Source of the DNA: a virus
Lineage: Duplodnaviria > Caudoviricetes
Length of the DNA stretch: 58,261 nucleotides
Strand: one strand, 5' to 3'
Virus record (IMG/VR): IMGVR_UViG_3300032240_000532
Coordinates: 1-58,261 of that record
A program made the translations under genes and the position numbers. Shown here one piece after another: positions 390 to 56,740 of the stretch; within the stretch, counting starts at the first letter, position 1, and each line of letters opens with the position of its first letter. The notes under the pieces were generated by a model. The model was not told the origin of the DNA. It saw only the letters and a list, made by a program, of their open reading frames with translations, and searched no databases.

Positions 390-416
390 AAAGGGGGTTT
401 AAACGCCCCCTTTTTT
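390..416 (+). terminator. Rho-independent terminator after capsid gene
   Basis: aaaggggg-tttaaacg-ccccc-tttttt hairpin plus T-tract; GTTTAAAC (397-404) spans the loop. Confidence 0.85.
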
Positions 417-440
417 GTTGTTTTGTTGTAAGATTAAATC

Positions 441-515
441 ACTGGGGATTCATTTCTATTGACCTGCACCCAGCAGGACGATGCAACGACAATAGAGAGA
501 CTTTTGCATAAGGAG
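441..515 (+). other. Candidate structured (pseudoknotted) leader upstream of ORF 523
   Basis: Pairings tctattg/caataga, cctgc/gcagg, ctggg/cccag and atgcaa/ttgcat, ending next to the aaggag RBS. Confidence 0.4.
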
Positions 516-522
516 TTCCATC

Positions 523-1224
523 ATGGGACGTTCAACATTTGAAGGGCCAGTCCTTTCTGGCGATAACCGTTTCGGTCCTCTGCGCAACGTTGGTTACCAG
601 CGTCTGTCGCAAAACATTATTCTTGACTTTGCCGCCACTGGCGGTAGCGGCACAGCAAACTATGCTGGCGGCTCTGGTCAATTTGTTTCCTCAAATAACA
701 TCCCCAATCAGGCGGCTGTTATTTATACCCCCTCTGCCTCGGTATATCCTCCTACCGTTGTCACACCCACTGCTGATGCGTCTACTGCGATTTATCGTGG
801 CGCTGTGTTCTATTTGCCAATCAATTGCCAAATTGAAACCGTGGTGTTTGATTACATCACTACGATTGCTTGCACAAAAACAACCATCAGTTCAATTGCA
901 CTCTTGGTGTCCAACGGCTTTGTGACCAGTTCTCCTACCTACGCAACTGTGACTCTCAGTAGCACTGATTCGTTTGGTACAACTGGTCGTATTGCTACGA
1001 CTTACAGCGCCTCCAACTTGGGCAACATGTTGTCTACCCCTGCCGACATCACCACTGGCAACAACAACCCACCTCAACTTTCCCAAGTGGTTTGCACTTT
1101 GGCAATTGTTGGTACTGGTTTGTCTGCCTTGACTGCTGGCAAGTTCAACATTGACATCAATTACGTCCAAGACGACAACAACATCGGTAACAGCACAACT
1201 TACCCATACGGTAACTTTGACTGA
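523..1224 (+). CDS. Putative virion structural protein (capsid-associated)
   Basis: 233 aa, T/S/G-rich and beta-like; aaggag RBS; directly after the capsid gene. Confidence 0.6.
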   Translation: MGRSTFEGPVLSGDNRFGPLRNVGYQRLSQNIILDFAATGGSGTANYAGGSGQFVSSNNIPNQAAVIYTPSASVYPPTVVTPTADASTAIYRGAVFYLPINCQIETVVFDYITTIACTKTTISSIALLVSNGFVTSSPTYATVTLSSTDSFGTTGRIATTYSASNLGNMLSTPADITTGNNNPPQLSQVVCTLAIVGTGLSALTAGKFNIDINYVQDDNNIGNSTTYPYGNFD

Positions 1225-1229
1225 TTCTG

Positions 1230-1559: not shown

Positions 1560-1881
1560 GAGTCCCGCTTGGCAACGTTCCGAAGGAAAAAATCCCAGTG
1601 GCGGTTTAAACGCCAAAGGGAGGGCTTCCTACAACGCCGCCAATCCGGGCAAGCCGGGTTTAAAGCGTCCTCAGCCTGAAGGCGGCAAGCGCCGTGATTC
1701 TTTTTGTGCCCGTATGGAAGGCATGAAGAAGAAACTCACCAGCGAAAAAACCGCTCATGACCCTGACTCTCGAATCAACAAAAGCCTACGTGCTTGGAAC
1801 TGTGCCGAAGGCGGCATGATTTCAGGTTTCAAGGGAGATGGTATTGCCCAAAAGGGAAAGACCAGAGGCAGGATGTGCTAA
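1552..1881 (+). CDS. Small basic protein (GGLN...SFCARM...WNC type, DUF6321-like)
   Basis: MAKSPAWQR...GGLNAKGR...SFCARM...SLRAWNC; ATG at 1552 overlaps the upstream gene end; C-terminal AEGG...DGIAQKGKTRG motif. Confidence 0.7.
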   Translation: MAKSPAWQRSEGKNPSGGLNAKGRASYNAANPGKPGLKRPQPEGGKRRDSFCARMEGMKKKLTSEKTAHDPDSRINKSLRAWNCAEGGMISGFKGDGIAQKGKTRGRMC

Positions 1882-2885: not shown

Positions 2886-3217
2886 TGGCTAAGAAACGCT
2901 ACGCAAGTGGCGGTATCACCATCTCAATGGGCGGCGGTCAGTCGTCCGATGGGGTGTTTGGTGAGAAAGCCAATTCAGGTAACCAGTACCCATTCCCCAA
3001 CGGAAATGCTGGCGATAGCCCAACGGCTACCACCGACAGTTCTCAAGGGACAAATCAAACATTCAACATCCAGCCGCCAGCCTCTTCATCTTCCGGCAAC
3101 CAAGACGATTCGTCTCCTGCCAAGATGTTTAAACGTGGTGGAACAGTCAAGTCATCAGCATCCAAGCGTGGTGACGGCATCGCCCAACGTGGCAAAACTC
3201 GTGGTAAATACCTTTAA
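2885..3217 (+). CDS. Small protein with YASGG/FKRGG and DGIAQRGKTRG motifs
   Basis: 110-aa coupled ORF sharing its C-terminal motif with 1552-1881. Confidence 0.65.
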   Translation: MAKKRYASGGITISMGGGQSSDGVFGEKANSGNQYPFPNGNAGDSPTATTDSSQGTNQTFNIQPPASSSSGNQDDSSPAKMFKRGGTVKSSASKRGDGIAQRGKTRGKYL

Positions 3218-4764: not shown

Positions 4765-5193
4765 ATGGCAACGCAATACGCTTCTGGCAAATACAGTATT
4801 GCTGAGTGCGATAGATGCGGTCAGCGGTACAAACTCAAGGAACTCAAAAAAGAGATTATCAAGACACGCCTGTTTAATTTGAAGGTGTGCCCTGAGTGCT
4901 GGGACCCAGACCAACCGCAGTTGTCTCTTGGTCTGTACCCTGTTCAAGACCCCCAAGCCGTCCGTGAACCACGTCCCGACGTGAGTTACTGGGCATCAGG
5001 TTTAAACGGCCTACAAACTGCCAATGGCAATGGGTATGGAGAAAGCCAAACTGGTTACCAAGACGAGGGTAGTCGAATTTTCCAGTGGGGATGGAATCCG
5101 GTTGGAGGTTCAAGCAGTATTGATGCGGGGCTTACCCCTAACAATCTTGCATTGAAATTTGCAATTGGAAGTGTGACAATATCAACCAGTTAA
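4765..5193 (+). CDS. Zn-ribbon protein
   Basis: CDRC and CPEC pairs, then DPQAVREPRPD. Confidence 0.65.
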   Translation: MATQYASGKYSIAECDRCGQRYKLKELKKEIIKTRLFNLKVCPECWDPDQPQLSLGLYPVQDPQAVREPRPDVSYWASGLNGLQTANGNGYGESQTGYQDEGSRIFQWGWNPVGGSSSIDAGLTPNNLALKFAIGSVTISTS

Positions 5194-5204
5194 GGAGTTT
5201 AAAC

Positions 5205-5638: not shown

Positions 5639-5648
5639 GGTTTAAACG

Positions 5649-6311: not shown

Positions 6312-6724
6312 TTGTTCAAACAGTAACCACCTCGTTCAAGCAAGACATCCTCAAAGGGGTTCAAGACCTCTCGACGGATGTTTTGCGCATGGCGCTGTAT
6401 ACCGCTCTTGCCGATTTGGATGCCAACACATTGGCGTATACCAGCGTGGGCGAGGTTTCAGGAACAAATTACACGGCTGGCGGCAAGATTTGCCAAAACG
6501 TTGTCATCAAATCTGACACTCAAAATGGTATTGTTTATGTGACCTTCGACAACGTAATTTGGACAAATGTTTCCTTTACTTGTCGTGGTGCGCTAATTTA
6601 CAATGTAACGCAGGGAAATAAGTCAGTTGCCATCCTAAACTTCGGTTCAGATAAAACGGCAGGACCAAATTTCACAGTCACTTTGCCAGCGGATACGCCG
6701 TCAAGTGCTTTAATCAGAGTTTAA
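6308..6724 (+). CDS. Tail-associated protein, paralog 1
   Basis: ATGA-coupled start; TSFK...MALYT...GEVSGTNYTAGG...LIYN...FGSDK...ALIRV. Confidence 0.65.
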   Translation: MIVQTVTTSFKQDILKGVQDLSTDVLRMALYTALADLDANTLAYTSVGEVSGTNYTAGGKICQNVVIKSDTQNGIVYVTFDNVIWTNVSFTCRGALIYNVTQGNKSVAILNFGSDKTAGPNFTVTLPADTPSSALIRV

Positions 6725-6737
6725 ACAAGGAGCCAAC

Positions 6738-8268: not shown

Positions 8269-11200
8269 ATGTCAACATACTCATCAAACCTCTATGTCGA
8301 ACTGATTGGTACTGGTGAACAAACTGGTACTTGGGGTTCGACTACCAACAACAACTTCCAATATGTGTTTGAGGAAGCAATTGTTGGTCGTGCAACCGTT
8401 GCCTTCAGTGATGCTGATGTCACCCTGACTCCCGTCTCCGCATCCACCAACCAGACGTTCCGTAACGTCTATTTGAACTGCACGGGAACAAACACTGCCA
8501 GCCGCAACCTGATTGTTCCAAACATCAACAAGAATTACATTGTTGAGAACAACACCACAGGCGGCTTCAACATTGTTGTGAAGACCTCCGCTGGCACAGG
8601 CATCACCGTGCCTAACGGGTTTAAATGCGCTGTGTATGTGGATGGCACAAACGTTGTTACCGCTTTCAACTATCTTGGCAGTGCACTGACTCTTTCTTCT
8701 CTGACTGTTACTGGCAATGAAACAGTCAACGGAACCGTTACTTGGACTGGCGGCACAGCCAACGGTGTGGTATATCTGAATGGTTCTAAAGTTGCTACAA
8801 GCGGTTCTGCGCTTACTTTTGATGGAACTAACTTTTCTATTGGTGGAACTTCAGACCCATTTGGGCGGTTTTACACTCGTTCTGTTGGAATTACATCAAG
8901 CGGTTCAAGTGTTCTTGAAATTAGCGGTACGAGTTATGGCGCTATTGATATGGGTACAGGCGCTACAAGATATTTTTCTCTTTTGGGAAATAGCACTGAT
9001 GCAATCATTGGAACATTAAATGGAGCAATTCCGCTTGAGTTTCAGATTAACGGCTCAGAACAAATGCGCCTAACCAGCACAGGTCTGGGTATTGGTACAA
9101 GTAGTCCTAGTTATAAGTTGGATGTTCAAAATACTGCCGCAACTACTTGGGCGCGAATTGGTTACTCAACAATTAATAGCGGTGCTGGTGTTATTTTTAA
9201 TGGAGCATCAACACAAAAAAACTGGGTAATTGCAAACCAATATAACGTAAATGGTGGCCTTGAATTTACCCAAACAACTGCTGGTGGCGGGTCTGCTATT
9301 GGGTCTACGCCATCAATGGTTCTCGACTCCTCAGGCAATCTAGGTATTGGTACAAGTAGTCCTTTATCAAAGGTTGATGTTCGTGCCGCAAATGCCACTA
9401 TGGGCAACTACCAAACCATACAAGCATTTAGCACAGACACAGCAACCATTGATTATGGTGGTGGTATTAGCCTTGGTGGTTATTACAGCGGCACAAGTTC
9501 TATTGCTCAGTTTGCATCTATTTCAGGGCGCAAAGAAAACGGAACAGCGGGTAACTATGCGGGTTATTTGCAATTTGGTACAAACAGCCAAGCAACTGGT
9601 GTGCGAGAGGTCATGCGCCTTGATAGCGCAGGTAATTTAGGCGTTGGAACCACAAGCCCAACTTCTTATGTTGGCAAAGTTGTTATCAATGGTCATCAAA
9701 GCATTATTGGCGGCAACTCTTTATTTTTGTGGGATTCTGGAAACGCTAATGCGCCAAGCATTTACGCACCAAGCGATTCAATAGCATTTAAAAACAATGC
9801 TGGCTCAGAACTAATGCGTATCAACAGCACAGGTCTGGGTATTGGTACAAGTAGTCCTTCACGAAAATTAAGTGTTGAAACAACAAACACATCAAGCCAA
9901 GAAATTACAAACATATTTGCAAATTCTCTTTCAAACAGCAATTATGTTGATGTGCTAATTGGTAAATCTGCTTCAACTGATAGAACTGGAATTATTCGCT
10001 TCCAAAACGGCACAGGCGCAGGCGACTCTAGTTTGCAACTTGGTTTATATGGTCAATCGCCACTTGCTTTAAATATTTCATACTCAGGCAATCTAGGCTT
10101 GGGAGTTACTCCTAGTGCTTGGGGTGGAAACTACAAAGCATTTGAAGGCTCTGCTTATGGTGGCGGACAACTTTGTTTTGGCAACGGTTCACCAATTATT
10201 TTTTCCAACGCTTATAACAATGGAACTAACTGGATATACAAATCAACTCAGTTAGCAAGTTACTATCAGCAGTTCCAAGGACAACATATTTGGTACAACG
10301 CCCCATCAGGCACAGCAGGAAACGCCATTACCTTTACTCAGGCAATGACTCTGGATGCTAGTGGGAATTTGCTGGTGGGTACTACATCCAGTTTAAGTTC
10401 TGCGGCTAATAGAACTGATTTAAGTGTCAATGGAACTAACACGGCTATCGTCAGCCTTGGTGTCGGCGGAACTCGTCAAGGATATTTATATACGCCCGGA
10501 TCGGGAGTTATTCTTGCGGCAGATGGCGCAAATGCAATTGCTTTTTGGACTAACGCAACAGAGCGTGCTCGTATAAGTTCAAACGGTAACTTTTCAATTG
10601 GTACTACTTCTTCAGCATACCCATTAACGATTTACCAAAATGGCTCAGTCAACAACCAGTATCTTGCATTATTAGATGGACAAAGTGGCGGTCACACATG
10701 GGTGTTGTCAAACAATGCCGCAAACGTAGTGGGTTCATTTGGTCTGTACGATTCAACCGCCAGTGGTTATAGATTTTTTATAGATGGTAATGGTTATGCA
10801 GGTATTGGCACGACTAGTCCATCATCTCTTTTGTATTTAAATGGTGGAACAGATGACCAAATTCTTCGTATTGGCAATACAAACGCAACTGGCAGTCAAT
10901 ATTTATCTATTTACGCAAATGGTGCTCAAGCGTATTACAACAGCGTAAACACTCAAAACTCTGTATATGGAAACCACATTTGGAACTCTCAAAATAACGG
11001 TGGAACAGTAGAGCGCGCCCGTATTGATTCAAGCGGTAATTTTCTTGTTGGAACCACAAGTGCTGGCACTAAAGTATCTGGTAGTTTAATTCAAGTTGGA
11101 CCTGCAGGTGGAGGCGGTCAAATCAATATTAGTGGTGGTTATACAGCGGATTCCGCATTAAATATTCGTGATCTTGGAAATAATCTTATATCATTTTTTT

Positions 11201-11577
11201 ATGGCCCAACAAAAGTCGGCTCTGTTACTACCAACGGAACAATAACTGTTTACAACACAACTTCAGACTATCGCTTAAAAAATGTCACAGGCAACTTGAC
11301 AGGGTACAAAGAGCGCTTGATGTCTTTGCAACCAAAGCAAGGTACTTGGATTGCTGATGGTTCTGAATTCCGTGGTTTCTTGGCGCATGAGTTTGCAGAT
11401 TCTTATAGTGCTTCTGTTACAGGAAAAAAAGACGCTGTAGATAAAGACGGCAAACCAGTCATGCAAGCAATGCAAGCATCAAGTTCAGAAGTTATGGCAG
11501 ACTTGGTGGCAATGATAAATGAATTGATAAATGAAAATCAATCACTCAAGGCACGTTTGGATGCCGCAAATCTTTAA
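8269..11577 (+). CDS. Tail fibre protein with C-terminal peptidase S74 intramolecular chaperone domain
   Basis: N-terminal GEQTGTWGSTTNNN anchor; repeated R(I/L)xSxGNxG(I/V)GTxSP junctions; TSDYRLK...GFLAHE autocleavage motif with terminal coiled coil. Confidence 0.88.
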   Translation: MSTYSSNLYVELIGTGEQTGTWGSTTNNNFQYVFEEAIVGRATVAFSDADVTLTPVSASTNQTFRNVYLNCTGTNTASRNLIVPNINKNYIVENNTTGGFNIVVKTSAGTGITVPNGFKCAVYVDGTNVVTAFNYLGSALTLSSLTVTGNETVNGTVTWTGGTANGVVYLNGSKVATSGSALTFDGTNFSIGGTSDPFGRFYTRSVGITSSGSSVLEISGTSYGAIDMGTGATRYFSLLGNSTDAIIGTLNGAIPLEFQINGSEQMRLTSTGLGIGTSSPSYKLDVQNTAATTWARIGYSTINSGAGVIFNGASTQKNWVIANQYNVNGGLEFTQTTAGGGSAIGSTPSMVLDSSGNLGIGTSSPLSKVDVRAANATMGNYQTIQAFSTDTATIDYGGGISLGGYYSGTSSIAQFASISGRKENGTAGNYAGYLQFGTNSQATGVREVMRLDSAGNLGVGTTSPTSYVGKVVINGHQSIIGGNSLFLWDSGNANAPSIYAPSDSIAFKNNAGSELMRINSTGLGIGTSSPSRKLSVETTNTSSQEITNIFANSLSNSNYVDVLIGKSASTDRTGIIRFQNGTGAGDSSLQLGLYGQSPLALNISYSGNLGLGVTPSAWGGNYKAFEGSAYGGGQLCFGNGSPIIFSNAYNNGTNWIYKSTQLASYYQQFQGQHIWYNAPSGTAGNAITFTQAMTLDASGNLLVGTTSSLSSAANRTDLSVNGTNTAIVSLGVGGTRQGYLYTPGSGVILAADGANAIAFWTNATERARISSNGNFSIGTTSSAYPLTIYQNGSVNNQYLALLDGQSGGHTWVLSNNAANVVGSFGLYDSTASGYRFFIDGNGYAGIGTTSPSSLLYLNGGTDDQILRIGNTNATGSQYLSIYANGAQAYYNSVNTQNSVYGNHIWNSQNNGGTVERARIDSSGNFLVGTTSAGTKVSGSLIQVGPAGGGGQINISGGYTADSALNIRDLGNNLISFFYGPTKVGSVTTNGTITVYNTTSDYRLKNVTGNLTGYKERLMSLQPKQGTWIADGSEFRGFLAHEFADSYSASVTGKKDAVDKDGKPVMQAMQASSSEVMADLVAMINELINENQSLKARLDAANL
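9075..9858 (+). repeat. 34-bp direct repeat at 9075-9108 and 9825-9858 within tail fibre gene
   Basis: cagcacaggtctgggtattggtacaagtagtcct occurs twice, with a partial third copy at ~9343-9363. Confidence 0.85.
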
Positions 11578-43907: not shown

Positions 43908-43910
43908 GAT

Positions 43911-45029: not shown

Positions 45030-45031
45030 GA

Positions 45032-46507: not shown

Positions 46508-46531
46508 TTGAGCCTCCAAAAAAAAGTTAAA

Positions 46532-47101
46532 TTACAGAGTGAAAGTTGAGCCATCATTCGGGCAAGTGGGCAAGCCTTGGTCAGCCCAAGTCTTGGTGAG
46601 TCGGATGGTGTACCCGCAAGAGGGGCACACCGCCTTGAGCATGCGAGTCGATTGCACCTTGCGGTCAGCCGATACATTTAAACGGGCATGAGGGTAGTCA
46701 CCAAGCGAAGCGACAAGGTCACCGAATTGCACTCTGAAGTTGTCACCGACCTTGGTCGATGTTGGCTTGCCCTCAAGGTAAAACTTGCGAACACAAGCGG
46801 GAAAGCGTCCACGGTGTCCGTCCCCGTCAGTGGCGGCATGTGCCAGTTCATGCACGAGAATGCCAAACACCTCGAACACATCCGACTCCACGGGAGAGAT
46901 GAGAATCTCATGGGTGTTGTCAGCCGATGCACGGGCAGAGTGATGCTCACCGATTGCACGGTTCAGAGAGCGAGCGTGACGGGAGGGGAAACCGCAAGTC
47001 ACACGAATGCGGTCAGGCAAGGGAAAGCCGTTCGCATCGAAGAGAGGACGCAGTTCATCGACTGCGGATGAGAGCCAGTTTTCACGGGTAGATGTGGTCA
47101 T
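46532..47101 (-). CDS. SprT-like zinc metalloprotease with C-terminal Zn ribbon
   Basis: LVHELAHA...GHRGRF; CPSC...CPND; ggaggctca RBS. Confidence 0.72.
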   Translation of the reverse strand: MTTSTRENWLSSAVDELRPLFDANGFPLPDRIRVTCGFPSRHARSLNRAIGEHHSARASADNTHEILISPVESDVFEVFGILVHELAHAATDGDGHRGRFPACVRKFYLEGKPTSTKVGDNFRVQFGDLVASLGDYPHARLNVSADRKVQSTRMLKAVCPSCGYTIRLTKTWADQGLPTCPNDGSTFTL

Positions 47102-47292
47102 TTTGTGAGCCTCCGAAAAGTTGATTTGACAAGGTTGCGACCGATGCACTCGCCTGAGTGCACCGAGCCGTCAGCGTAGGTGAAAGATTCCCCGCAACCT
47201 CCCGCCCAGTCGAGCAGACCGATGAGCAAGAGAATGACGAGAACGAGGGAAAGGGTGAAGCCGATGATGTATTCGGTTGCCTTGTGCATCAT
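47098..47292 (-). CDS. Small membrane protein
   Basis: One TM helix followed by GCGE...GEC. Confidence 0.6.
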   Translation of the reverse strand: MMHKATEYIIGFTLSLVLVILLLIGLLDWAGGCGESFTYADGSVHSGECIGRNLVKSTFRRLTK

Positions 47293-47435
47293 GCTTCCCC
47301 CTTGATGGATTCGAGCCGAGCGATGCAGTCCTCGATGGCGGGGATTGCGTCAGAGGGGTTGCCCTCGGTCAATTCGTAGAGTGCACCGTTGAGTTGTTCC
47401 CAAAGTACTTGCAGAGTGGATTCGATTTCAGACAT
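47289..47435 (-). CDS. Small hypothetical protein, first gene of leftward operon
   Basis: ggaggctca RBS; 48 aa. Confidence 0.6.
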   Translation of the reverse strand: MSEIESTLQVLWEQLNGALYELTEGNPSDAIPAIEDCIARLESIKGEA

Positions 47436-47824
47436 GGTTTGAGCCTCCATTGAGAGTTGAGAATTGATGCGATTGCATCCGCAAGTGCACTGCGAACAAT
47501 GCACTTGAAGGGCAATCCCTTGTCACCCTTATTCACGAGGGTGAGACATGGGGTCAGAGCCTTGCGCACACTGCTGAGAGTGTCAGACCGACTTTGCTTG
47601 CCCCCCGAAAATGTGTAGGTGGTAGGGCGTGAGTGAGTCGGTCAGCGTAGGTGTCTGACATAGTCATGAGGGCTTGCGTTTTCTCAGTCTGTCCCCGAAT
47701 GGTGTAGGTGGGTGACATGTCGAGAGGTGCGTTCCTCACGGGCTTTCTGCTCGGGCTAGAGTGTTTGCGAGTCACTCATCAAAGCCGTCATTTGTCGTTC
47801 AGTGCAAGCACCGAACTGAGACGA

Positions 47825-47854
47825 ATGATAGCACGGTTTAAACACCCCATGCAA
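47825..47854 (-). promoter_or_regulatory. Sigma70-like promoter of leftward early operon with GTTTAAAC in spacer
   Basis: TTGCAT-18-TATCAT with an extended -10 TG; GTTTAAAC at 47836-47843. Confidence 0.6.
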
Positions 47855-48337
47855 GCACTTTGTGAAAATCTTTTTTTGGGGTGTTTTCCCTCGAAGGGAC
47901 GGGCAAAGACAATCCCGACTAAGTTGTGGGGTTATTGCCAAAAAAGGGTGTTTCCAGCCTATCCATCGACCCCCATTTTTGACCCCGTTTTGACCTCTTT
48001 TTTTCAGCCCGTTTAAACCTCCGATGTTGGATGTCCTCACCCACGGTGATGACCTCCAAGGGTAAGCGTTTAAACGATGAGCCACTGGCTCACGGCATGA
48101 GCCACTGAAAGCGGGAAAGCGAAGCGATGCGGTCTCATCCTCAGAGAGAGCATGCACGACACAACACAATGCGAAGTGTCGTGCTCTGCGCACCGAGTTG
48201 TCACGCCTCGCACTGCATTTTGTCGTGCTTGTTGCGAACACACTGCGAACAGAGTGCGAACATCGTTGACCACTCGATGTTTAAACCTCGACAATGTGAG
48301 TCATTCCCGCAAGGGTTCACGAATGGAGAAAACCAAC

Positions 48338-48970
48338 ATGCGCAACGACAAACACACTGCAAAGAGCACCGAACACAACACAAGCACTGCAAGCACGAAC
48401 GATGCTATCGAGGGGGAATCTTATGTCGAAGACATGCGGTCAAGGGTTGAAAGCGTACAAGTAAAGACAAAGAAGAACGGATTGCCAGTAGGTGTGCATA
48501 CAGAGGCAACCTCCACGAGTAGTGGACGAGACAAACGCCTCACTGCAAAGATGCAGTTGTTCTGCTCTCTCATGGCAAAGGACATGTCACCGAAAGAGGC
48601 TTACCGCAAAGCATACGACTGCTCTCGAATGTCAGAAGCGTCAGTGCAAGCGTGTGCGAACGAATTAATGCGAGACCCTCGAATCAGTATGCTAATGGAG
48701 TCTTTGTGGCAAGACACCAAAGAAGCCATCATTGCAGACAATGTCTCAGCAAGACGAATGGTCATGGCAGACCTTTACAAGCATGCGAAGAACGAAAAGG
48801 AAAACCTGAGCAACCGTCTGAAAGCACTCGAACTCATTGGGCGGTCGATTGGCATGTTCACGGACAAAGTAGAGCAGACCGTGGAGGAAGTGAGTGTTGA
48901 CCAGTTGAAGAAAGAACTTGAGTCATCACTGGCGTTGCTCGACAAGACACCGAAGCGATTGATGCAGTGA
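48338..48970 (+). CDS. terS: Terminase small subunit
   Basis: LTAKMQLFC...EAYRKAY...ANELMRDPRI...RLKALELIGRSIGMFTDK; ggag RBS before ATG 48338. Confidence 0.82.
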   Translation: MRNDKHTAKSTEHNTSTASTNDAIEGESYVEDMRSRVESVQVKTKKNGLPVGVHTEATSTSSGRDKRLTAKMQLFCSLMAKDMSPKEAYRKAYDCSRMSEASVQACANELMRDPRISMLMESLWQDTKEAIIADNVSARRMVMADLYKHAKNEKENLSNRLKALELIGRSIGMFTDKVEQTVEEVSVDQLKKELESSLALLDKTPKRLMQ

Positions 48971-49095
48971 CGGCATGCGGTGTGCGATGCGTGGCGGTGC
49001 GACCCCACCCGTACCCCACCCCCGCAGATGTACCCCCATGCTCGTGAGCGCCACTACACTGTAAACCACACATCCCACTACCTACCCCTATCACT

Positions 49096-49152
49096 TACGA
49101 ACGTTCTCCCCCTACCCCTACATATAAATTCCTGATAACATACGAACGTTCT
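49096..49152. promoter_or_regulatory. Paired TACGAACGTTCT boxes (operator-like)
   Basis: Identical 12-mers at 49096 and 49141 with palindromic core GAACGTTC; the second abuts the aggagg RBS. Confidence 0.5.
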
Positions 49153-49163
49153 TAGGAGGTTAT

Positions 49164-49499
49164 ATGAAACAAGAATCTACTGAAATTATTCACCCAACAG
49201 GTGGCTTTGGTCTTTTAGAATCAAAACCAAACTACATGCTGTCTTTCCACAAAGAAGGCAAACAAGTTGGCACGTTTGACTTTAACGAAGGCAAGATGCA
49301 CTTTGAAGGCGAACTATCTGAGAGCGGTGAAATATTTGTTGACTGGGTTATTGGTGCGTTTAAACAGCGTCTTGATGATGCGGTTAAAGCGGAGCGTGAG
49401 GCATGCGCAAAACGAGCAAGCGTTGCACTTCTTGGTACGCTTCAAAAAACATCAGACAGAGTCTTGAGAGCCATTCAAAAAGGTAATGATGCCACTTAA
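49164..49499 (+). CDS. Hypothetical protein
   Basis: aggagg RBS; ...AVKAEREACAK. Confidence 0.7.
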   Translation: MKQESTEIIHPTGGFGLLESKPNYMLSFHKEGKQVGTFDFNEGKMHFEGELSESGEIFVDWVIGAFKQRLDDAVKAEREACAKRASVALLGTLQKTSDRVLRAIQKGNDAT

Positions 49500-49695
49500 A
49501 CCTCATCCAACAGACCTTGACAAGATGGTCTATGTAAGTCGTCAGTACGACTTGCGTGACTACCGCAAAGAGATGCTAAATTTCATTGATGAGTTCACAG
49601 GGGCGGAGCAGGAACGTCACCCGATGTTCTCTGAAGGTTATGACTTGGCTCTTTTACACATGAAGCAATTGATTGAAGGAAAGACTTATGAGTGA
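49486..49695 (+). CDS. Hypothetical protein
   Basis: Coupled 69-aa ORF. Confidence 0.55.
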   Translation: MMPLKPHPTDLDKMVYVSRQYDLRDYRKEMLNFIDEFTGAEQERHPMFSEGYDLALLHMKQLIEGKTYE

Positions 49696-49891
49696 CGGCG
49701 GCAAAGGCGACAAACAGCGCCCTACAAACCATCGGAGTTTTGCTGAAAACTTTGACAGAATCTTTGGGAAGAAGAGTACGGAACAAGAACGTTCTGGTAC
49801 AATGGAAGGCCAACAATCTTCTGGAGAAACCAATGGCTCTGCACCGAATTTACCTTGTGACCCACCCGAGCGGCGAAATGCGTCTCGTTAA
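49688..49891 (+). CDS. Small hypothetical protein
   Basis: MSDGGKGDKQRP...FAENFDRIFGKK. Confidence 0.5.
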   Translation: MSDGGKGDKQRPTNHRSFAENFDRIFGKKSTEQERSGTMEGQQSSGETNGSAPNLPCDPPERRNASR

Positions 49892-50057
49892 GGCTGGAGT
49901 CCGCTCCCAAGCCCTGACCCATGTGGCGATGTCCACCTTTGGCGTTCGTGTTGCAACTCAGGATGACCTTGTGTCTTGTTTGACCAAAGGCATTCAAGTT
50001 GAAAATATGAAGTCTCCTGACCAAACTGAGTTTGAGTTGGAAGACAAGGCGGTTTAA
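49833..50057 (+). CDS. Hypothetical protein
   Basis: ggag RBS; RIYLV...RLVKA...QALTHVA...VRVATQDDL. Confidence 0.6.
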   Translation: MALHRIYLVTHPSGEMRLVKAGVRSQALTHVAMSTFGVRVATQDDLVSCLTKGIQVENMKSPDQTEFELEDKAV

Positions 50058-50070
50058 GTTATAGTTTGTT

Positions 50071-50281
50071 TTCCACCGTGGGTGCTCTAGCGAAGCACAG
50101 CCCGACAAGGGACGGTGACTTGGTGCAAATCCAAGGCGGTGGAATCAATAAGTCTGGAGATTGGCGGGTATGAAGTCGGTCAGTGGAAGCCTATGTCGTC
50201 CCTTGTGCGCACAACACGACACGCAACCTTAATCCCGATGCTCCGTGTGGGTCGCACCCACAACAGTCTCCAGTCTTATTG
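50071..50281 (+). ncRNA. Candidate ncRNA: tRNA-like cloverleaf plus multibranch domain
   Basis: ttccaccgt/gcggtggaa acceptor, gtgct/agcac D-like arm, cttgg-tgcaaat-ccaag T-like arm; long stem 50146-50163/50264-50281. Confidence 0.55.
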
Positions 50282-50295
50282 TTTCACGTGAAACG
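50280..50295. promoter_or_regulatory. parS: parS-like centromere site
   Basis: TGTTTCACGTGAAACG, 15/16 to the widespread parS consensus TGTTTCACGTGAAACA; intergenic. Confidence 0.75.
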
Positions 50296-50359
50296 TGACA
50301 ATGTTTAAACACTTGTGGCACAATACCCAGAACGTTTCCTATTTGTTCTGAGGTAGCAA

Positions 50360-50545
50360 GTGAATCTAAAGTTAGTCGAACTCGCACAACAATGTGAAGA
50401 CCTGACGGTTGATGAAGCCAAGGCGCTCATCCACCACCTCAAGTTATTGGTCGATGCTGAAGAACTTGCCTCCCGTCCTGCAACCGGATGGCGCAAAAGA
50501 ATCGTAAGTCAGCACATCAAAAACGAGGAGCATCTGAATGACTGA
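50360..50545 (+). CDS. Small hypothetical protein
   Basis: gaggt RBS with GTG start. Confidence 0.55.
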   Translation: MNLKLVELAQQCEDLTVDEAKALIHHLKLLVDAEELASRPATGWRKRIVSQHIKNEEHLND

Positions 50546-50768
50546 ACGACAGAAATTGGTGTTGGACTTTATCAACACATTCATTAAGATGAAGGGCTTT
50601 GCCCCGTCTTACGCAGAGATTGCTCGTGGTTTAAACATGTCAAGCAAGTCAAATATCCACAGACTTGTGCACACCTTAAAAGACAGGGGTCTTCTCAAAG
50701 TCCAACCCCACATGATTCGCAGTCTCAAGGTGGTTGACCAGTCCATAGACAAAATCGTCAAGTTGTAA
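50538..50768 (+). CDS. LexA-like N-terminal winged-helix DNA-binding protein (no peptidase domain)
   Basis: MTERQKLVLDFI...GFAPSYAEIA...SKSNIHRLVHTLKDRGLL...RSL. Confidence 0.85.
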   Translation: MTERQKLVLDFINTFIKMKGFAPSYAEIARGLNMSSKSNIHRLVHTLKDRGLLKVQPHMIRSLKVVDQSIDKIVKL

Positions 50769-52276
50769 TGGCACTCCTTACAGAAGACGAACTTAAAAAA
50801 TACAGGGAGTTACTCGATGTACTCCCAGAGAATCACAAAGACATCCCTAAGATACGAACGTTACTGCGAGAAGACAAGAAAGAACGGTGCAGAAACAACT
50901 TTCTGCCCTTCGTAAAGGACATGTGGTCGGCCTTTATCCCCGGAAAACACCACAGAGACATGGCGGATGCCTTCGAAAGAGTGGCAAATGGTAGCCTAAA
51001 GCGGCTCATCATCAACATGCCACCCCGTCACACCAAGTCTGAGTTTGCTTCCTACCTGTTTCCTGCTTGGTTTCTAGGTAAATACCCTGAGAAAAAGATT
51101 ATTCAGACCGCTCACACCGCAGAATTGGCGGTTGGATTCGGTCGAAAGGTGCGAAATCTGGTCAATACGCCCGACTATCAGGGCATTTTTCCCACAAAAC
51201 TCTCCACAGATAGCAAGGCGGCTGGTCGTTGGAACACCCACAAGGGCGGTGACTACTTTGCTATCGGCGTTGGCGGTGCTGTGACGGGTAAAGGCGCTGA
51301 TGTGCTCATCATTGACGACCCACACTCCGAACAAGAGGCGATGCAAGGCACTCCGGGGGTGTATGACCGTGTGTTTGAGTGGTACAACTCCGGTCCCCGT
51401 CAGCGTTTACAGCCGGGAGGAGCCATTGTCATCGTCATGACTCGATGGTCTAAGCGGGACTTGACCGGACAAATCATCAATTCCTCCACAAAACGAGACG
51501 GCACAGATGATTGGGAAGTGATTGAATTCCCTGCCCTGATGCCTAGTGGTAAACCCCTATGGCCTGAGTTCTGGAGCCAAAAAGAACTCGAGGCAATCAA
51601 GGCTGAACTTCCAGTTGGTAAGTGGGAAGCCCAGTATCAACAGAATCCCACATCCGAAGAAGGTGCGATTATCAAACGAGATTACTGGCGGATATGGGAT
51701 AGCGATGTTCCACCAGCATGCGAGTACATCATCCAGTCTTGGGACACGGCGTTTGAGAAAAACAACCGTGCTGATTTCTCCGCTTGTACAACGTGGGGTA
51801 TTTTTTACAAACCCAATGAACAAGGCGATACGGTTGCCAACATTATTCTTCTTGAAGCCATCAAAAAACGTTTGGAGTTTCCAGAATTAAAGGACGAGGC
51901 CATGCGCCAGTTCAAAGAATGGAACCCAGATACCCTGATTGTGGAAAAGAAAGCGGCGGGTGCACCACTCATTTATGAAATGAGGCGGATGGGAATACCA
52001 ATTTCAGAGTACACACCAAGCAAAGGCAGTGATAAGATAGCCCGTGTAAACGCCATATCAGACCTGTTTGCTTCTGGTTTGGTTTGGTGTCCAGATACTC
52101 GCTGGGCTGATGAAGTCATGGAAGAGTGCGCCTCTTTCCCAAATGGAGAGCACGACGACCTTGTTGACTCGACAAGTCAGGCGTTGTTGAGATTCCGTCA
52201 AGGCGGCTTTATCAAATTGCAATCAGATGAGCCAGACGAAGTCCCTGTGTTTAAACGCAAAGTTGCGTACTACTAA
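50768..52276 (+). CDS. terL: Terminase large subunit
   Basis: INMPPRHTKS, LIIDDPH, VMTRW, QSWDTA, FPNGEHDDLVDS. Confidence 0.95.
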   Translation: MALLTEDELKKYRELLDVLPENHKDIPKIRTLLREDKKERCRNNFLPFVKDMWSAFIPGKHHRDMADAFERVANGSLKRLIINMPPRHTKSEFASYLFPAWFLGKYPEKKIIQTAHTAELAVGFGRKVRNLVNTPDYQGIFPTKLSTDSKAAGRWNTHKGGDYFAIGVGGAVTGKGADVLIIDDPHSEQEAMQGTPGVYDRVFEWYNSGPRQRLQPGGAIVIVMTRWSKRDLTGQIINSSTKRDGTDDWEVIEFPALMPSGKPLWPEFWSQKELEAIKAELPVGKWEAQYQQNPTSEEGAIIKRDYWRIWDSDVPPACEYIIQSWDTAFEKNNRADFSACTTWGIFYKPNEQGDTVANIILLEAIKKRLEFPELKDEAMRQFKEWNPDTLIVEKKAAGAPLIYEMRRMGIPISEYTPSKGSDKIARVNAISDLFASGLVWCPDTRWADEVMEECASFPNGEHDDLVDSTSQALLRFRQGGFIKLQSDEPDEVPVFKRKVAYY

Positions 52277-54726: not shown

Positions 54727-54916
54727 CAAAACCCTTAAACACCTCATCGGTCAAATCGACGAGAAGGTGACACAAATTCAGAACGCCCTTGGGGACGGAA
54801 GTCCCAAAGACTGGGCTGAATACAGAGCGATGGTCGGAGAGATAAAAGGTCTTCTCACTGCCCGTTTAAACATGATAGACCTACAAAAAAACATCGAGGA
54901 ATCTGATGACGACTGA
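54719..54916 (+). CDS. Small hypothetical protein
   Basis: aggagg RBS; EYRAMVGEIKGL. Confidence 0.7.
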   Translation: MIDKTLKHLIGQIDEKVTQIQNALGDGSPKDWAEYRAMVGEIKGLLTARLNMIDLQKNIEESDDD

Positions 54917-55322
54917 CATCCTACTGGCTACCAACCCAGACAACCCTGTGATTATTGGGTCGTTTCACAAGCCCCAAGAAGAGAAAGCAAAACAACTTCC
55001 TAAACCAAGCGGATACCACATCTTGTGCGCCATCCCTGAACAGGAAGAAACCATCGAAGGCACTACGTTGATTAAACCAACGGAGACAATTCGATACGAA
55101 GAGATGTTAACTACTGTGCTGTTTGTGGTCGCCCTCGGCCCAGACTGCTACACCGACAAAGACCGCTATCCCACAGGACCGTGGTGCAAGGTCGGTGACT
55201 TCATCCTTGTCCGTCCCAATGTTGGTTCTCGCCTTGTCATTCATGGCAAAGAGTTCCGCATGATTAATGAAGACACGGTCGAGGGAACGGTAGACGACCC
55301 CCGAGGAATTAAACGCAAATAA
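54906..55322 (+). CDS. GroES/Cpn10-like co-chaperonin
   Basis: PKPSGYHIL...VVALGPD...KVGDFIL...GKEFRMINED. Confidence 0.78.
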   Translation: MTTDILLATNPDNPVIIGSFHKPQEEKAKQLPKPSGYHILCAIPEQEETIEGTTLIKPTETIRYEEMLTTVLFVVALGPDCYTDKDRYPTGPWCKVGDFILVRPNVGSRLVIHGKEFRMINEDTVEGTVDDPRGIKRK

Positions 55323-55333
55323 GGAGTTTAAAC

Positions 55334-56290
55334 ATGGCTGAATACAAAGGCGACGAATTTAAATTCCCAGATGAACTTGAAGATGAAATCAAGGAACACT
55401 CTGAGGAATTAAAAAAAGAAAAAGAACAAGAGAGTTCTTTTGAAATTGAAGTCATAGACGATACGCCTGAGAAAGACCGTAACGTCAAACCCATCCCCAA
55501 AGAAAAGCGGGATGAACTCTATGACGATGAACTGCAAGACTATTCTGCAAAAGTAAAACAAAAACTAATGCAGATGAAAAAACTTGCTCACGATGAGCGC
55601 CGAGAGAAAGAACAGGCGTTCCGTGAACAACAAGAGGCGGTTGCTTTTGCGCAACGAGTTTCTGAAGAGAATAAACGCCTCAAGCAACTTGCCAATGAGC
55701 ACGAGAAGAACGTTCTCATGTCCGTTACCAGAGCGGTTGAACTGGAAATGGAGCAAGCCAAGCGAGCATACAAAGAAGCGTATGACGCAGGTGATACTGA
55801 CAAGGTATTAGAAGCCCAGCAGAAAATGACTGAGGCGGCTATGAAACAGGAAAAGGTAAGAAATTACCGTCCTACCCCTTTACAAGTCGAAGAACCTGTT
55901 GTACAAATGAGGCAACCAGTGGTGCAAGCGCCACGCCCTGACAATTCCGCTATTGATTGGCAACAAGAAAATCAGTGGTTTGGTCAAGATAAGTTGATGA
56001 CTGGAATGGCTTTGGCCCTCCATGAACAACTTAAAGAAGAGGGTGTTGCGCTATCATCCAAAGAATACTATCGACGCATTGATGAAACAATGCGACAACG
56101 CTTTCCAGAGAAGTTTGCTTCTCGAACAAACGAGGAAACTCGTACACGTCCCAGCACGGTTGTAGCGTCTGCTACCCGGAGCACATCCCCCAAGAAAATC
56201 CGACTGACCCAGTCACAACTGGCTATTTCGAAGAAACTTGGCTTAACGCCAGAGCAATACGCTCAGGCTGTACTCAAAATGGAGGCTTAA
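55334..56290 (+). CDS. Putative capsid scaffolding protein
   Basis: Acidic coiled-coil protein between portal and capsid; C-terminal LTQSQLAISKKLGLTPEQYA. Confidence 0.7.
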   Translation: MAEYKGDEFKFPDELEDEIKEHSEELKKEKEQESSFEIEVIDDTPEKDRNVKPIPKEKRDELYDDELQDYSAKVKQKLMQMKKLAHDERREKEQAFREQQEAVAFAQRVSEENKRLKQLANEHEKNVLMSVTRAVELEMEQAKRAYKEAYDAGDTDKVLEAQQKMTEAAMKQEKVRNYRPTPLQVEEPVVQMRQPVVQAPRPDNSAIDWQQENQWFGQDKLMTGMALALHEQLKEEGVALSSKEYYRRIDETMRQRFPEKFASRTNEETRTRPSTVVASATRSTSPKKIRLTQSQLAISKKLGLTPEQYAQAVLKMEA

Positions 56291-56740
56291 ATGGCTTACA
56301 ACAAAAAACCCCGTGAACTTGAAACCCGTGCACAAGAGGTGCGCCCCATGCAGTGGAAGCCTCCTGAGTTGTTGCCAGAACCTGACAAACAACCCGGTTA
56401 CAAGTACAGATGGATTCGTGTTTCTCTTTTGAACAGTCCTGACCCTCGCAATATCTCTCGCTCACTGCGAGAAGGTTACGAGCCAGTGCCAGTGGAAGAG
56501 CAACCAAAGTTTAAACTGCTAATCGACCGAAACAGCCAGTTCACTGGCAATATCGAAATCGGTGGGTTGTTGTTATGCAAGGCTCCTGAAGAAATGATGG
56601 AAGCCAGAGCCAAGTACTACGATGATATGACTCGTGCACAGGCTGATGCTGTTGACAACAATTTAATGCGCCAAAGCGATGCGAGGATGCCGCTCTTCCA
56701 AGAGCGTAAGTCTTCGACGAGTTTTGGAAAAGGTACTTAA
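56291..56740 (+). CDS. Hypothetical head-region protein
   Basis: WKPPELLP...YRWIR...EGYEPV...GGLLLCK. Confidence 0.7.
   Translation: MAYNKKPRELETRAQEVRPMQWKPPELLPEPDKQPGYKYRWIRVSLLNSPDPRNISRSLREGYEPVPVEEQPKFKLLIDRNSQFTGNIEIGGLLLCKAPEEMMEARAKYYDDMTRAQADAVDNNLMRQSDARMPLFQERKSSTSFGKGT

Follow-up and report, generated by a model that had tools for sequence, protein, structure and literature searches.

The DNA analysed here, called the window throughout, is a stretch of 58,261 bp that makes up a complete virus record (IMG/VR IMGVR_UViG_3300032240_000532; Duplodnaviria, Caudoviricetes). Our own rough gene calls gave 76 open reading frames (ORFs), which cover 95% of the genome and leave about 5% intergenic. 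The palindromic octamer GTTTAAAC is iterated 47 times in this genome, in genes and between them. A gene on the minus strand that encodes an SprT-like zincin with a C-terminal zinc ribbon is the candidate for the protein that reads it. Table 1 lists the copies, the gene and the other features. An exact direct repeat of 123 bp is present at the genome ends; it contains no GTTTAAAC site, so no copy was counted twice.

A first-pass annotation of this DNA had counted 47 exact copies by eye and had put the chance expectation at about one. All 47 copies exist, including the 24 whose positions it gave, and the expectation agrees with 100 dinucleotide-preserving shuffles (mean 1.22 copies, maximum 5, none reaching 47) and with Markov models of order 0, 1 and 2 (0.96, 1.14 and 0.78 copies). 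The inner hexamer TTTAAA occurs 85 times in the window, and 47 of these occurrences have the G and C flanks. The bases that flank the octamer are biased as well, to C/T 5' of it and to G/A 3' of it: 23 of the 47 sites read YGTTTAAACR, and six carry the full 10-mer CGTTTAAACG. The full word is a 10-bp palindrome, CGTTTAAACG, with GTTTAAAC as its core and CGTGTAAACG as its actinophage variant, in which one half-site is changed (CGTGT instead of CGTTT). The many one-mismatch variants noted earlier hold up only in part, as GTGTAAAC (11 copies, 5.9-fold) and A/CTTTAAAC are in excess and the others occur at expectation. The variant GTGTAAAC/GTTTACAC is found 11 times in the window against 1.9 expected, and 152 times against 23.8 in the 80 close relatives described below; its copies in the window are probably weaker sites. 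Among the one-mismatch variants of these relatives, GTGTAAAC shows the largest excess (6.4-fold), followed by ATTTAAAC (3.2-fold), and the others lie near expectation. The specificity is shared, as the variant in top excess in the window's clade, GTGTAAAC, matches the form found in actinophages.

Thirty-six of the 47 sites lie within ORFs, 19 framed G-TTT-AAA-C (Phe-Lys) and 17 framed GT-TTA-AAC (Leu-Asn), which bears out the previous statement that copies occur inside genes on both strands. Two more overlap a stop codon (GTT TAA), and nine are intergenic despite the small share of intergenic DNA. When synonymous codons were shuffled within genes, 2.50 +/- 1.50 copies remained (maximum 7, n=500) against 36 observed in coding sequence; shuffling of codon order left 0.76. 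The dipeptides show a modest excess (Phe-Lys 55 against 40.1 expected, Leu-Asn 89 against 72.8), and the codon choice is extreme: TTA-AAC is used in 26 of the 89 Leu-Asn pairs, while TTA represents 121 of the 1413 Leu codons. Codon or dipeptide usage, named in the first-pass annotation as the explanation that would undo its selected signal, is ruled out by the two shuffles as the cause of the excess. The signal is selected at the level of DNA and reflects neither codon nor dipeptide bias.

Some regulatory placements proposed for the copies were confirmed. Two sites stand between a Shine-Dalgarno-like sequence and an ATG (context aaggaGTTTAAACatg, at 5197 and 55326), and two others are found in terminator-like structures, with a hairpin loop followed by a T run (at 397 and at 40113-40137). 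A promoter spacer had been suggested at 47836, where a consensus scan of 47400-48200 detected no promoter-like site; the same scan detected one unrelated site in 39900-40500. The tail fibre gene is indeed free of copies, but this absence was discarded as a signal, since the 5661-bp gap is ordinary for 47 random sites (the largest gap averages 5480 bp in simulations). An ATG starts 0-1 nt after seven of the 47 copies (5197, 5640, 32268, 48068, 50629, 54864 and 55326), where we estimate about 1.5 by chance. Nine of the 47 sites are contained in a single ORF of 2894 aa whose family was not recognised.

Table 1. Features of the window. Frames are given by the dipeptide encoded (Phe-Lys, G-TTT-AAA-C; Leu-Asn, GT-TTA-AAC).
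Feature	Position	Strand	Context
GTTTAAAC	397..404		intergenic; loop of G/C hairpin, then T run
GTTTAAAC	1604..1611		ORF 1504-1881(+), Phe-Lys
GTTTAAAC	3127..3134		ORF 2885-3217(+), Leu-Asn
GTTTAAAC	5000..5007		ORF 4765-5193(+), Phe-Lys
GTTTAAAC	5197..5204		intergenic; aagga on one side, ATG on the other
GTTTAAAC	5640..5647		intergenic; ATG 1 nt after
GTTTAAAC	6719..6726		intergenic; aaggag just downstream
GTTTAAAC	12380..12387		ORF 12219-12923(+), Leu-Asn
GTTTAAAC	14590..14597		ORF 14391-16517(+), Phe-Lys
GTTTAAAC	16890..16897		called ORF 16644-17009(-); overlapping ORF 16834-17157(+)
GTTTAAAC	17801..17808		ORF 17151-18272(+), Leu-Asn
GTTTAAAC	18041..18048		ORF 17151-18272(+), Leu-Asn
GTTTAAAC	19136..19143		ORF 18712-21213(+), Phe-Lys
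GTTTAAAC	21237..21244		ORF 21215-23095(+), Phe-Lys
GTTTAAAC	25098..25105		2894-aa ORF, Leu-Asn
GTTTAAAC	25622..25629		2894-aa ORF, Phe-Lys
GTTTAAAC	26619..26626		2894-aa ORF, Leu-Asn
GTTTAAAC	26879..26886		2894-aa ORF, Phe-Lys
GTTTAAAC	27735..27742		2894-aa ORF, Leu-Asn; full 10-mer CGTTTAAACG
GTTTAAAC	29427..29434		2894-aa ORF, Leu-Asn
GTTTAAAC	30117..30124		2894-aa ORF, Leu-Asn
GTTTAAAC	32268..32275		2894-aa ORF, Leu-Asn
GTTTAAAC	32960..32967		2894-aa ORF, Phe-Lys
GTTTAAAC	33779..33786		ORF 33530-33841(-), RecA-dependent nuclease family, Phe-Lys
GTTTAAAC	34915..34922		ORF 34763-35038(-), Leu-Asn
GTTTAAAC	36500..36507		ORF 36380-36706(-), Phe-Lys
GTTTAAAC	37773..37780		ORF 37720-38412(-), ERF, Leu-Asn
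GTTTAAAC	39686..39693		ORF 39561-39929(+), RusA, Leu-Asn
GTTTAAAC	40120..40127		intergenic; within terminator-like hairpin 40113-40137
GTTTAAAC	40171..40178		intergenic; 3 nt 3' of TTGAAC, 51 bp from copy at 40120
GTTTAAAC	41097..41104		primase/helicase ORF 40745-42442(+), Phe-Lys
GTTTAAAC	41652..41659		primase/helicase ORF, Phe-Lys; full 10-mer
GTTTAAAC	42497..42504		intergenic; full 10-mer
GTTTAAAC	42811..42818		ORF 42684-42959(+), Phe-Lys
GTTTAAAC	44538..44545		ORF 43911-45029(-), Phe-Lys; full 10-mer
GTTTAAAC	46136..46143		MoxR-like AAA+ ORF 45032-46519(-), Phe-Lys; full 10-mer
GTTTAAAC	47836..47843		divergent region upstream of SprT-like operon; within doubtful ORF 47708-48016
GTTTAAAC	48011..48018		divergent region; overlaps stop of doubtful ORF 47708-48016
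GTTTAAAC	48068..48075		intergenic, divergent region; full 10-mer; ATG 1 nt after
GTTTAAAC	48279..48286		small-terminase ORF 48152-48970(+), Phe-Lys
GTTTAAAC	49358..49365		ORF 49164-49499(+), Leu-Asn
GTTTAAAC	50303..50310		overlaps stop of called ORF 50305-50496(-)
GTTTAAAC	50629..50636		LexA-like DNA-binding-domain ORF 50538-50768(+), Phe-Lys
GTTTAAAC	52249..52256		near 3' end of TerL 50768-52276(+), Leu-Asn; in 18 other TerL genes too (19/81)
GTTTAAAC	54864..54871		ORF 54719-54916(+); ATG directly after
GTTTAAAC	55326..55333		intergenic; aagga before, ATG of ORF 55334-56290 after
GTTTAAAC	56509..56516		ORF 56291-56740(+), Leu-Asn
GTGTAAAC/GTTTACAC (actinophage form)	13551..52051		starts 13551, 14422, 14854, 16670, 23304, 23954, 31778, 34652, 36810, 43736, 52044
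SprT-like zincin + C-terminal zinc ribbon (candidate reader)	46532..47101	-	189 aa; likely start 47101
SprT-headed operon	43104..47101	-	
MoxR/CbbQ-type AAA+ ATPase	45032..46519	-	same operon
372-aa protein	43911..45029	-	same operon; no family
CobT-like VWA protein	43104..43907	-	same operon
Divergent region	47570..48151		between leftward SprT-like operon and rightward small-terminase (TerS) gene; copies 47836, 48011, 48068
2894-aa ORF	24862..33546	+	family not recognised
Tail fibre gene	8269..11577		no copy
Recombination module	33530..39929		Ref-like RecA-dependent nuclease, ERF, exonuclease, RusA

The word is conserved in close relatives of the phage. Lineage A consists of the best 80 of 598 confirmed IMG/VR relatives found by the large terminase (TerL), with 77-86% TerL identity. 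It contains 594 copies of GTTTAAAC in 820,689 bp against 16.7 expected, over a GC range of 39-56%; the word is enriched in all 80 loci and is the first-listed palindromic 8-mer in 72. In a codon alignment of 81 TerL genes there are 58 sites, all in four columns. Conservation at synonymous positions, raised earlier as a check on selection, is observed in one of these columns, where CGT TTA AAC is used by 30 of the 32 genes encoding Arg-Leu-Asn, while genes with another third residue have mixed Arg and Leu codons. This pattern implies that synonymous positions are held for the word and that a variable residue is drawn towards it as well. Mapped on the TerL tree, this column requires five changes for 30 carriers and reflects mostly inheritance, and a second column requires five changes for six carriers, which indicates repeated gains of the site. 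The named relatives are distant by TerL (58% identity for 023Pt_psg01, 53% for the Pelagibacter phages HTVC027P and HTVC023P). Two such relatives (TerL 53-58%) were counted and neither is enriched, with three copies in 023Pt_psg01 and none in DSL-LC04. A megablast of 14 kb of the window against named phages gave no match.

In sequencing runs the phage was found in metagenomes only, mostly with freshwater or aquatic labels, and two runs of one study contain at least half of its words, one of these runs being possibly the source. Two Burkholderiales metagenome-assembled genomes (MAGs) and one Saprospiraceae MAG include contigs whose TerL is 74-79% identical, although the binning of a phage contig is weak evidence for a host. 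These three MAGs (G001-G003) have 41, 68 and 45 copies of GTTTAAAC in 2.1-3.2 Mb, no more than of the reversed control word. There is no enrichment in 301 sampled Burkholderiales genomes either, the largest count being 87 copies in 3.7 Mb, and the result is unchanged without three unpublished genomes (G299, G031 and G210). Mirroring of a host word was therefore rejected for these genomes, and the parallel that the first-pass annotation drew with signals of cellular genomes (HIP1, uptake sequences or matS) is not supported there. In G001, a Burkholderiaceae MAG, the copies on contigs C18 and C30 are clustered on short contigs, e.g. three in a stretch of 3.5 kb, and probably represent phage DNA that was binned with the MAG rather than sequence of the host. 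No tRNA gene, sought as a host clue, and no WhiB gene was found in the window. A mark for DNA modification had also been considered, and methylation finds no support. The methyltransferase signature [DNS]PP[YFWH], searched as a regular expression, is absent from all 76 ORFs, and scans of 38 ORFs with Pfam or PHROGs gave no match to a methyltransferase family, the other 38 being covered by the regular expression only. The word itself occurs in phages of Actinobacteria, Alphaproteobacteria and Gammaproteobacteria. The feature is real and strongly selected, and it is a property of phages rather than of their hosts.

Other motif-rich lineages were sought by scanning IMG/VR for two GTTTAAAC copies 20-50 bp apart, which gave 80 loci among the matches listed. 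Beyond lineage A, at least two unrelated uncultured lineages are rich in the motif, with TerL 22-34% identical to that of the window. Lineage B (TerL about 22% identical) has the densest arrays, about 3 per kb, and 246 copies overall against 2.9 expected; examples are G307 (43 copies in 33.9 kb), G308 (42 in 19.8 kb) and L097 (37 in 12.4 kb). G306, a complete record of 39.7 kb, is more distant. Lineage C is represented by G310 (TerL 34% identical, 22 copies), whose sites all fall in 5.1-15.4 kb, with none in 20 kb of structural genes. In both lineages the sites are crowded in 8-10 kb of the early (non-structural) module. In lineage B (locus L209 of G307, 12242-18801) this module encodes an Amidoligase_2 protein, a class-II glutamine amidotransferase, WhiB, a deoxynucleoside monophosphate kinase, a sigma70-region-4 protein, a Toprim primase, DUF3846 and DUF7249 proteins and a glycosyltransferase. 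The presence of WhiB points to an actinobacterial host, and the content of the module suggests freshwater actinobacterial hosts and possibly a modification pathway. G310 (L211-L212) also has abundant non-palindromic 8-mers, CCGCTGTA and CCGCTATA (16 each), CCAGAGTA (15) and CCCGATCC (11), each at 20-26 times expectation. Three metagenome loci, L240 (730-905, 21-bp period), L263 (39 bp) and L245 (22-23 bp), are tandem arrays of GTTTAAAC and not dispersed sites, and were set aside.

Across all motif-bearing phages, BLAST detected one common protein family, the SprT-like zincin (phrog_6361). It is also the sole family other than TerL that lineages A, B and C have in common (window ORF 46532-47149, minus strand). 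Among the IMG/VR matches listed, the gene is present in 16 of 23 dense loci and in none of 30 loci that have only the seeding pair; with metagenome loci added, again among the matches listed, the counts are 18 of 37 and 0 of 76, in both cases with loci of one lineage that are not independent. As a base-rate control, four large virus records with a chance pair have 4-13 forward copies of the word against 3-12 of the control word. Two metagenome contigs that are short, dense in sites and different in composition, L224 and L290, also carry the SprT-like gene. The binding proteins that had been proposed, LexA-like (50538), ribbon-helix-helix (RHH)-like (36380) and AT-hook (37076), are not common to all motif-bearing lineages: by BLAST, the first two are found only in loci related to the window's clade and the third in one locus. 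Pfam gave no family match for the ORFs at 36380 and 37076, whose RHH-like and AT-hook labels come from the first-pass annotation.

The association was also approached from the side of the gene. Homologues are present in 164 of 50,697 named phage records, mostly annotated as 'SprT-like protease'. Seventeen named phages were picked for the homologue alone, and copies of GTGTAAAC or GTTTAAAC were counted; 11 of the 17 carry the word. Seven are strongly enriched: Arthrobacter phage Reedo (28 copies), Microbacterium phages Caron (19) and Floof (17), Streptomyces phages Bogota (40), JackieB (42) and Microdon (43), and Dinoroseobacter phage R26L (21). Four have few copies, namely Serratia phage MQ-4 (7), Pseudomonas phages Persinger (4) and F_TK1718 (2 in 29 kb) and Achromobacter phage Mano (4). 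The remaining six have none (ChiliPepper, Coltrane and Epa5) or one (Franklin22, LK3 and MW2). The control word is absent from 16 of the 17 and occurs once in MQ-4. In an unbiased k-mer scan the word ranks first in Reedo, Caron, Bogota and R26L, and at k=10 the 10-mers of these four phages are 476-1152 times over expectation, with CGTGTAAACG spanning this range and CGTTTAAACG at 691 times in R26L. Besides the SprT-like protein, R26L has no other BLAST-detectable protein in common with the freshwater lineages. Floof (17 copies), ChiliPepper and Coltrane (0 each) have the same host strain, Microbacterium foliorum NRRL B-24224, which rules out a host cause there. The SprT-like gene alone is not sufficient for the motif, as 6 of its 17 carriers have 0-1 copies; these six led to the split in the protein described below. 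One of them, Bordetella phage LK3 (KX961385.2), has no GTTTAAAC array and has iterated 10-mers of its own, AAGAAGTATA (8 copies, about 1500-fold) and TAGATAGATA (8 copies), and one TATACTTCTT copy some 40 nt before its SprT-like gene.

Ten of the 11 named phages that bear the motif (Reedo, Caron, Floof, Bogota, JackieB, Microdon, MQ-4, Persinger, Mano and F_TK1718) have a copy whose first base lies 10-80 nt before the SprT-like start codon, and in R26L this distance is 293 nt. Phages with only 2-7 copies still place one of them there. For seven named phages the combined chance of this placement is about 1e-6, a value somewhat overstated because Bogota and JackieB are related. The distance from the aligned start to the nearest upstream copy is 55-107 nt in G306 and in lineages B and C. 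By eye, the copy lies 3' of a TTGACA-like hexamer in G306, G309 and Bogota, and 3' of the -10 element in Reedo and Floof. In the window, small ORFs separate the SprT-like gene from the nearest upstream copies, the three of the divergent region. Among 41 relatives that have both flanking genes, 24 have at least three copies in the same interval and 35 at least one. This region is probably a control region, a regulatory role suggested by analogy with the other phages. The sites extend over the whole genome in the window, Reedo, Bogota and R26L; in lineages B and C they keep to the early module. Their spacing is more even than random in R26L (coefficient of variation, CV, 0.36) and Bogota (0.52), with 0 of 5000 simulations as low in each case, and weakly even in Reedo (CV 0.70, P 0.036). 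In the window it is indistinguishable from random (CV 0.82, P 0.13), and Caron is likewise not even. R26L (vB_DshS_R26L, PP882867.1) has 20 copies of GTTTAAAC spaced 1.3-6.1 kb around its 79.5-kb genome.

The product of the window's gene matches phrog_6361 (E 1.5e-36). It has no match to PF10263 even at E<=10, and its homologues in G310 (26.3 bits) and G306 (21.4 bits) lie above and below the cut-off of 25.6. An HExxH motif is present as HELAH (residues 84-88), and the C-terminus has a Cys-x2-Cys...Cys-Pro ribbon. The AlphaFold2 (AF2) model has a mean local confidence score (pLDDT) of 87.7 and matches abylysin best (4jiu, E 9.6e-3, prob 0.99), followed by selecase and ribosomal zinc ribbons; a family-profile search of solved structures gave marginal matches only (abylysin E 0.45, WLM protease E 0.81). 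Directly before the first Cys pair the window has the element KVQSTRMLK. The pattern K-Q-x-T-R-(M/L/N)-x-K is present at this place in all 11 motif-bearing named phages and in five metagenomic proteins. In the motif-free ChiliPepper, Coltrane and Franklin22 the position reads SRSGKSIK, and in the motif-free LK3 and MW2 it reads PKGWFLVK, with the cysteines lost too. This contrast comes from an alignment of 14 proteins plus five more and covers five of the six motif-free phages (all but Epa5). Q150, T152 and R153 are invariant in 21 homologues, lineage B included. At the level of sequence, the KQxTR element tracks the presence of the motif. The relative L060 (IMG/VR, TerL 78% identical) has only four GTTTAAAC in 8.8 kb, with repeats of AATGCATT (5) and ATTGCAAT (4); its SprT-like protein is 36% identical to that of the window, and KQSTR is still present. 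The lineage B protein has lost HExxH and the next 13 residues and has kept the N-terminal RExWL, YPH, KQxTR and the ribbon. Since lineage B has the densest arrays, proteolysis is not the activity that is conserved.

A model of two copies of the protein gave an interface score (ipSAE) of 0.69 against 0.00 for the best of three controls, with at least 87% contact agreement between runs and a partner pLDDT of at least 86. This ipSAE mark was reached by 20 of 30 proteins whose solved structures are pairs of one chain and by 1 of 23 solved as single chains, counts that apply only approximately because the model used our own alignment. The predicted interface is symmetric and involves the near-invariant CGFP, YPH and zinc-ribbon segments; a symmetric homodimer, as predicted, fits a palindromic site. 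The SprT-like gene comes first in an operon that also encodes a MoxR/CbbQ-type AAA+ ATPase, a 372-aa protein without a family and a CobT-like VWA protein. A recombination module lies elsewhere in the window (Table 1). Family scans of 38 of the 76 ORFs, which cover a minority of those in the structural region, gave no match to a DNA polymerase.

We favour, with moderate confidence and from comparison of sequences, the reading that GTTTAAAC/CGTTTAAACG is the binding site of the SprT-like protein, which would use it both as the operator of its own operon and as an array across the genome. The first-pass annotation had proposed, among other options, a phage or a host protein as the binder; of its options a phage protein has the best support. 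We infer the reader from the motif-gene association, the site upstream of the gene and the covariation with KQxTR. The zincin, an early protein encoded by the phage, would read the palindrome as a symmetric homodimer, with the zinc ribbon and the invariant KQxTR that precedes it as the probable contacts to DNA. Autoregulation is suggested by the one or few sites that its own gene or operon has in the promoter or leader. Selection has raised the number of sites to tens in several lineages (in the window, one about every 1.2 kb), written into genes through synonymous codons (TTT-AAA, TTA-AAC) and through the choice of residues at variable positions. The protein would gather on phage DNA rather than on host DNA. 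The effect of binding might be transcriptional silencing or a roadblock, as with stoperators, or proteolysis tethered to DNA, as with Spartan-type proteases.

Several points weigh against this reading. Its support consists of associations throughout. The statement that only one family is shared holds at BLAST sensitivity (E 1e-4), at which fast-diverging small helix-turn-helix (HTH) or RHH regulators could escape. The named phages form about five motif-bearing and two or three motif-free groups, so that the KQxTR covariation relies on few independent contrasts. The fold matches are minimal zincins and ribosomal zinc ribbons, none of them a known sequence-specific DNA binder, and residues 141-150 of the AF2 model, just before KQxTR, have a mean pLDDT of only 50. 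For the other phages, positions relative to promoters were judged by eye; the window's nearest copy lies 735 nt upstream of the gene, in a region where the promoter scan was negative. The host scan covered Burkholderiales and one Saprospiraceae MAG. Finally, a plain operator accounts neither for the even spacing in R26L and Bogota nor for the confinement to the early module in lineages B and C; a need to cover the whole DNA molecule would account for the even spacing.

The alternative that survives best, which we consider possible though unlikely, is that another phage DNA-binding protein reads the motif, for example a small HTH, RHH, winged-helix or sigma-like one whose divergence puts it beyond the reach of BLAST, and that the SprT-like gene is only a conserved member of the early operon under its control. 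Sites in the promoter or leader of an operon headed by this gene are equally expected if the gene is the target. According to the part of the source available, Cluster AZ phages keep a sigma-like HTH protein beside the SprT-like gene (10.1101/2025.05.26.655371). Lineage B encodes a sigma70-region-4 protein and WhiB, and the window a protein with a LexA-like DNA-binding domain. However, no such candidate is common to the motif-bearing lineages at the level of BLAST, and sigma region 4 binds an asymmetric element as a monomer, not a palindrome. A different reader also leaves unexplained why loss of the motif tracks the replacement of KQxTR inside the SprT-like protein.

Sites related to replication, recognised by a primase/helicase or used for its loading and needed along the genome on both strands, are very unlikely. 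They would suit the even spacing in R26L, Bogota and Reedo, the mean spacing of 1.2-4 kb, which is of the order of Okazaki fragments, and the Toprim primase family common to lineages A, B and C, Reedo and Caron. But the same family occurs in Persinger and in ChiliPepper, which lacks the motif, and is not detected by BLAST in R26L and Bogota; the sites of lineages B and C are restricted to the early module, those of the window are spaced as at random, and known DnaG-type primases read trinucleotides. Even less probable is a signature of the HIP1 type, derived from the host or driven by methylation or repair. The lack of excess in the three MAGs and 301 genomes, the occurrence in phages of three phyla or classes, the contrast of 17 against 0 copies on one host strain and the lack of a methyltransferase in the ORFs scanned all argue against it, although the genome scan covered one bacterial order and, as in HIP1 in the parts of the literature available, an 8-bp palindrome occurs about once per kb with decaying outer positions (PMC4390886, PMC5861425). 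The least credible explanation is that the signal works in RNA or is a side effect of translation, through GUUUAAAC in mRNA, an A/U-rich element that enhances translation or a bias in codon pairs. In its favour, UUUAAAC is among the classical slippery heptamers, an ATG closely follows seven copies, two of them between aagga and ATG, and the fold search likens the zinc ribbon to those of ribosomal proteins. Against it, both open frames (19 and 17), both strands and non-coding sites are used, the synonymous and codon-order shuffles remove the excess, the asymmetric actinophage variant lies in both orientations to transcription (Reedo 19 and 9) and differs in orientation to the SprT-like gene between Caron and Bogota, and dyad symmetry is of no use to a single RNA strand.

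For the SprT-like protein as reader, stoperators are the closest working model. In that system an operator at the early promoter is accompanied by tens of copies across the genome, and one phage protein reads them all; here a copy upstream of the SprT-like gene or operon in most phages is accompanied by 17-47 further copies. Stoperators are asymmetric 13-mers oriented with transcription, placed mostly in short intergenic gaps of temperate phages and read by a monomeric HTH immunity repressor. In contrast, our word is an exact palindrome and mostly intragenic, its candidate reader is a zincin with a zinc ribbon, and the actinophage variant occurs in both orientations (Reedo 19 and 9, Bogota 23 and 18). 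No integrase or repressor family was found among the 38 window ORFs scanned. Phage P1 has more than 12 C1 operators scattered over the genome for one repressor, asymmetric 17-mers at promoters; they are similar in the number of sites per genome and different in not lying in coding sequence at about one per kb. Stoperators are described, in the part of the source available, for the Cluster A mycobacteriophages L5 and Bxb1 (PMC9283540). Cluster O mycobacteriophages carry a 17-bp dyad repeat, 5'-TGTTCGGNNNCCGAACA, in more than 30 copies, about one third of them intragenic; it is not in the host genome, the phages have no integrase, and the available part of the report assigns neither reader nor function (PMC4351075). 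The Cluster O repeat and our word are both short dyads with more than 30 inter- and intragenic copies; ours is not enriched in candidate hosts. The Cluster O repeat differs in being longer (7+3+7), of another sequence and limited to one cluster, whereas CGTTTAAACG occurs in phages of several bacterial phyla, is written into genes by synonymous codons and has a candidate reader gene.

HIP1 (GCGATCGC) of cyanobacteria is an octameric palindrome found about once per kb, 15- to 300-fold over-represented and conserved more than codon usage predicts, with deviations chiefly at the outer bases, as far as the available parts of the sources describe it (PMC4390886, PMC5861425). Our word is likewise a hyper-abundant palindromic octamer above composition and codon expectation; unlike HIP1, which occurs in cellular genomes with orphan methyltransferases, its excess was found in phages only, with no methyltransferase among the ORFs scanned. 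DNA uptake sequences and matS differ in being enriched in the host chromosome, which also encodes the machinery that reads them; the candidate hosts here show no excess. In SprT, Spartan and Wss1 an HExxH zincin is followed by a small zinc-binding module that binds DNA, and activity is coupled to DNA binding. The candidate reader is similar in having a zincin domain followed by a zinc module. It differs in that a defined 10-bp site is implied, where Spartan-type enzymes recognise DNA structures, and in that lineage B lacks the catalytic motif. SprT, Spartan and Wss1 (PF10263) are DNA-dependent metalloproteases according to the available part of a preprint on Cluster AZ phages (10.1101/2025.05.26.655371). 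In that text, which describes the SprT-like gene and its sigma-like neighbour, no passage on the word was found, supplements excluded, and in the available part of the R26L paper, supplements excluded, neither the word nor the SprT-like gene was found. In the literature searched, with subscription journals outside its coverage, GTTTAAAC, CGTTTAAACG, CGTGTAAACG, GTGTAAAC and GTTTACAC appear only in cloning or unrelated uses.

A more speculative and rather doubtful extension, made by analogy, is that the arrays are address labels for a protease. The dimeric SprT-like zincin would dock on CGTTTAAACG, mark phage DNA as self and cut proteins there. DNA would switch the protease on, as with Spartan, and the targets might be host silencers, defence factors or the phage's own early regulators. 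Replication would raise the number of sites, which could act as a copy-number timer for the switch from early to late expression, and lineages without HExxH would keep only the docking or silencing half. If true, it would be the first case of a protease directed by a DNA sequence on a viral genome, conserved between actinophages and roseophages.

Genome-wide arrays were known before in a few mycobacteriophage clusters, that of Cluster O having no reader or function since 2015. Our results add one 10-bp word, with a one-base variant, that persists despite coding constraint in phages whose hosts are Actinobacteria, Alphaproteobacteria and uncultured freshwater bacteria, and a single candidate reader gene that accompanies it. 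The link is directly testable, because several carriers are cultured on harmless laboratory hosts, Arthrobacter globiformis, Microbacterium foliorum and Dinoroseobacter shibae. If it is true, it would give a function to the widespread phage annotation 'SprT-like protease', and the array would be a means by which a virus tells its own DNA from that of the host, as well as a sequence marker for this group of phages in metagenomes.

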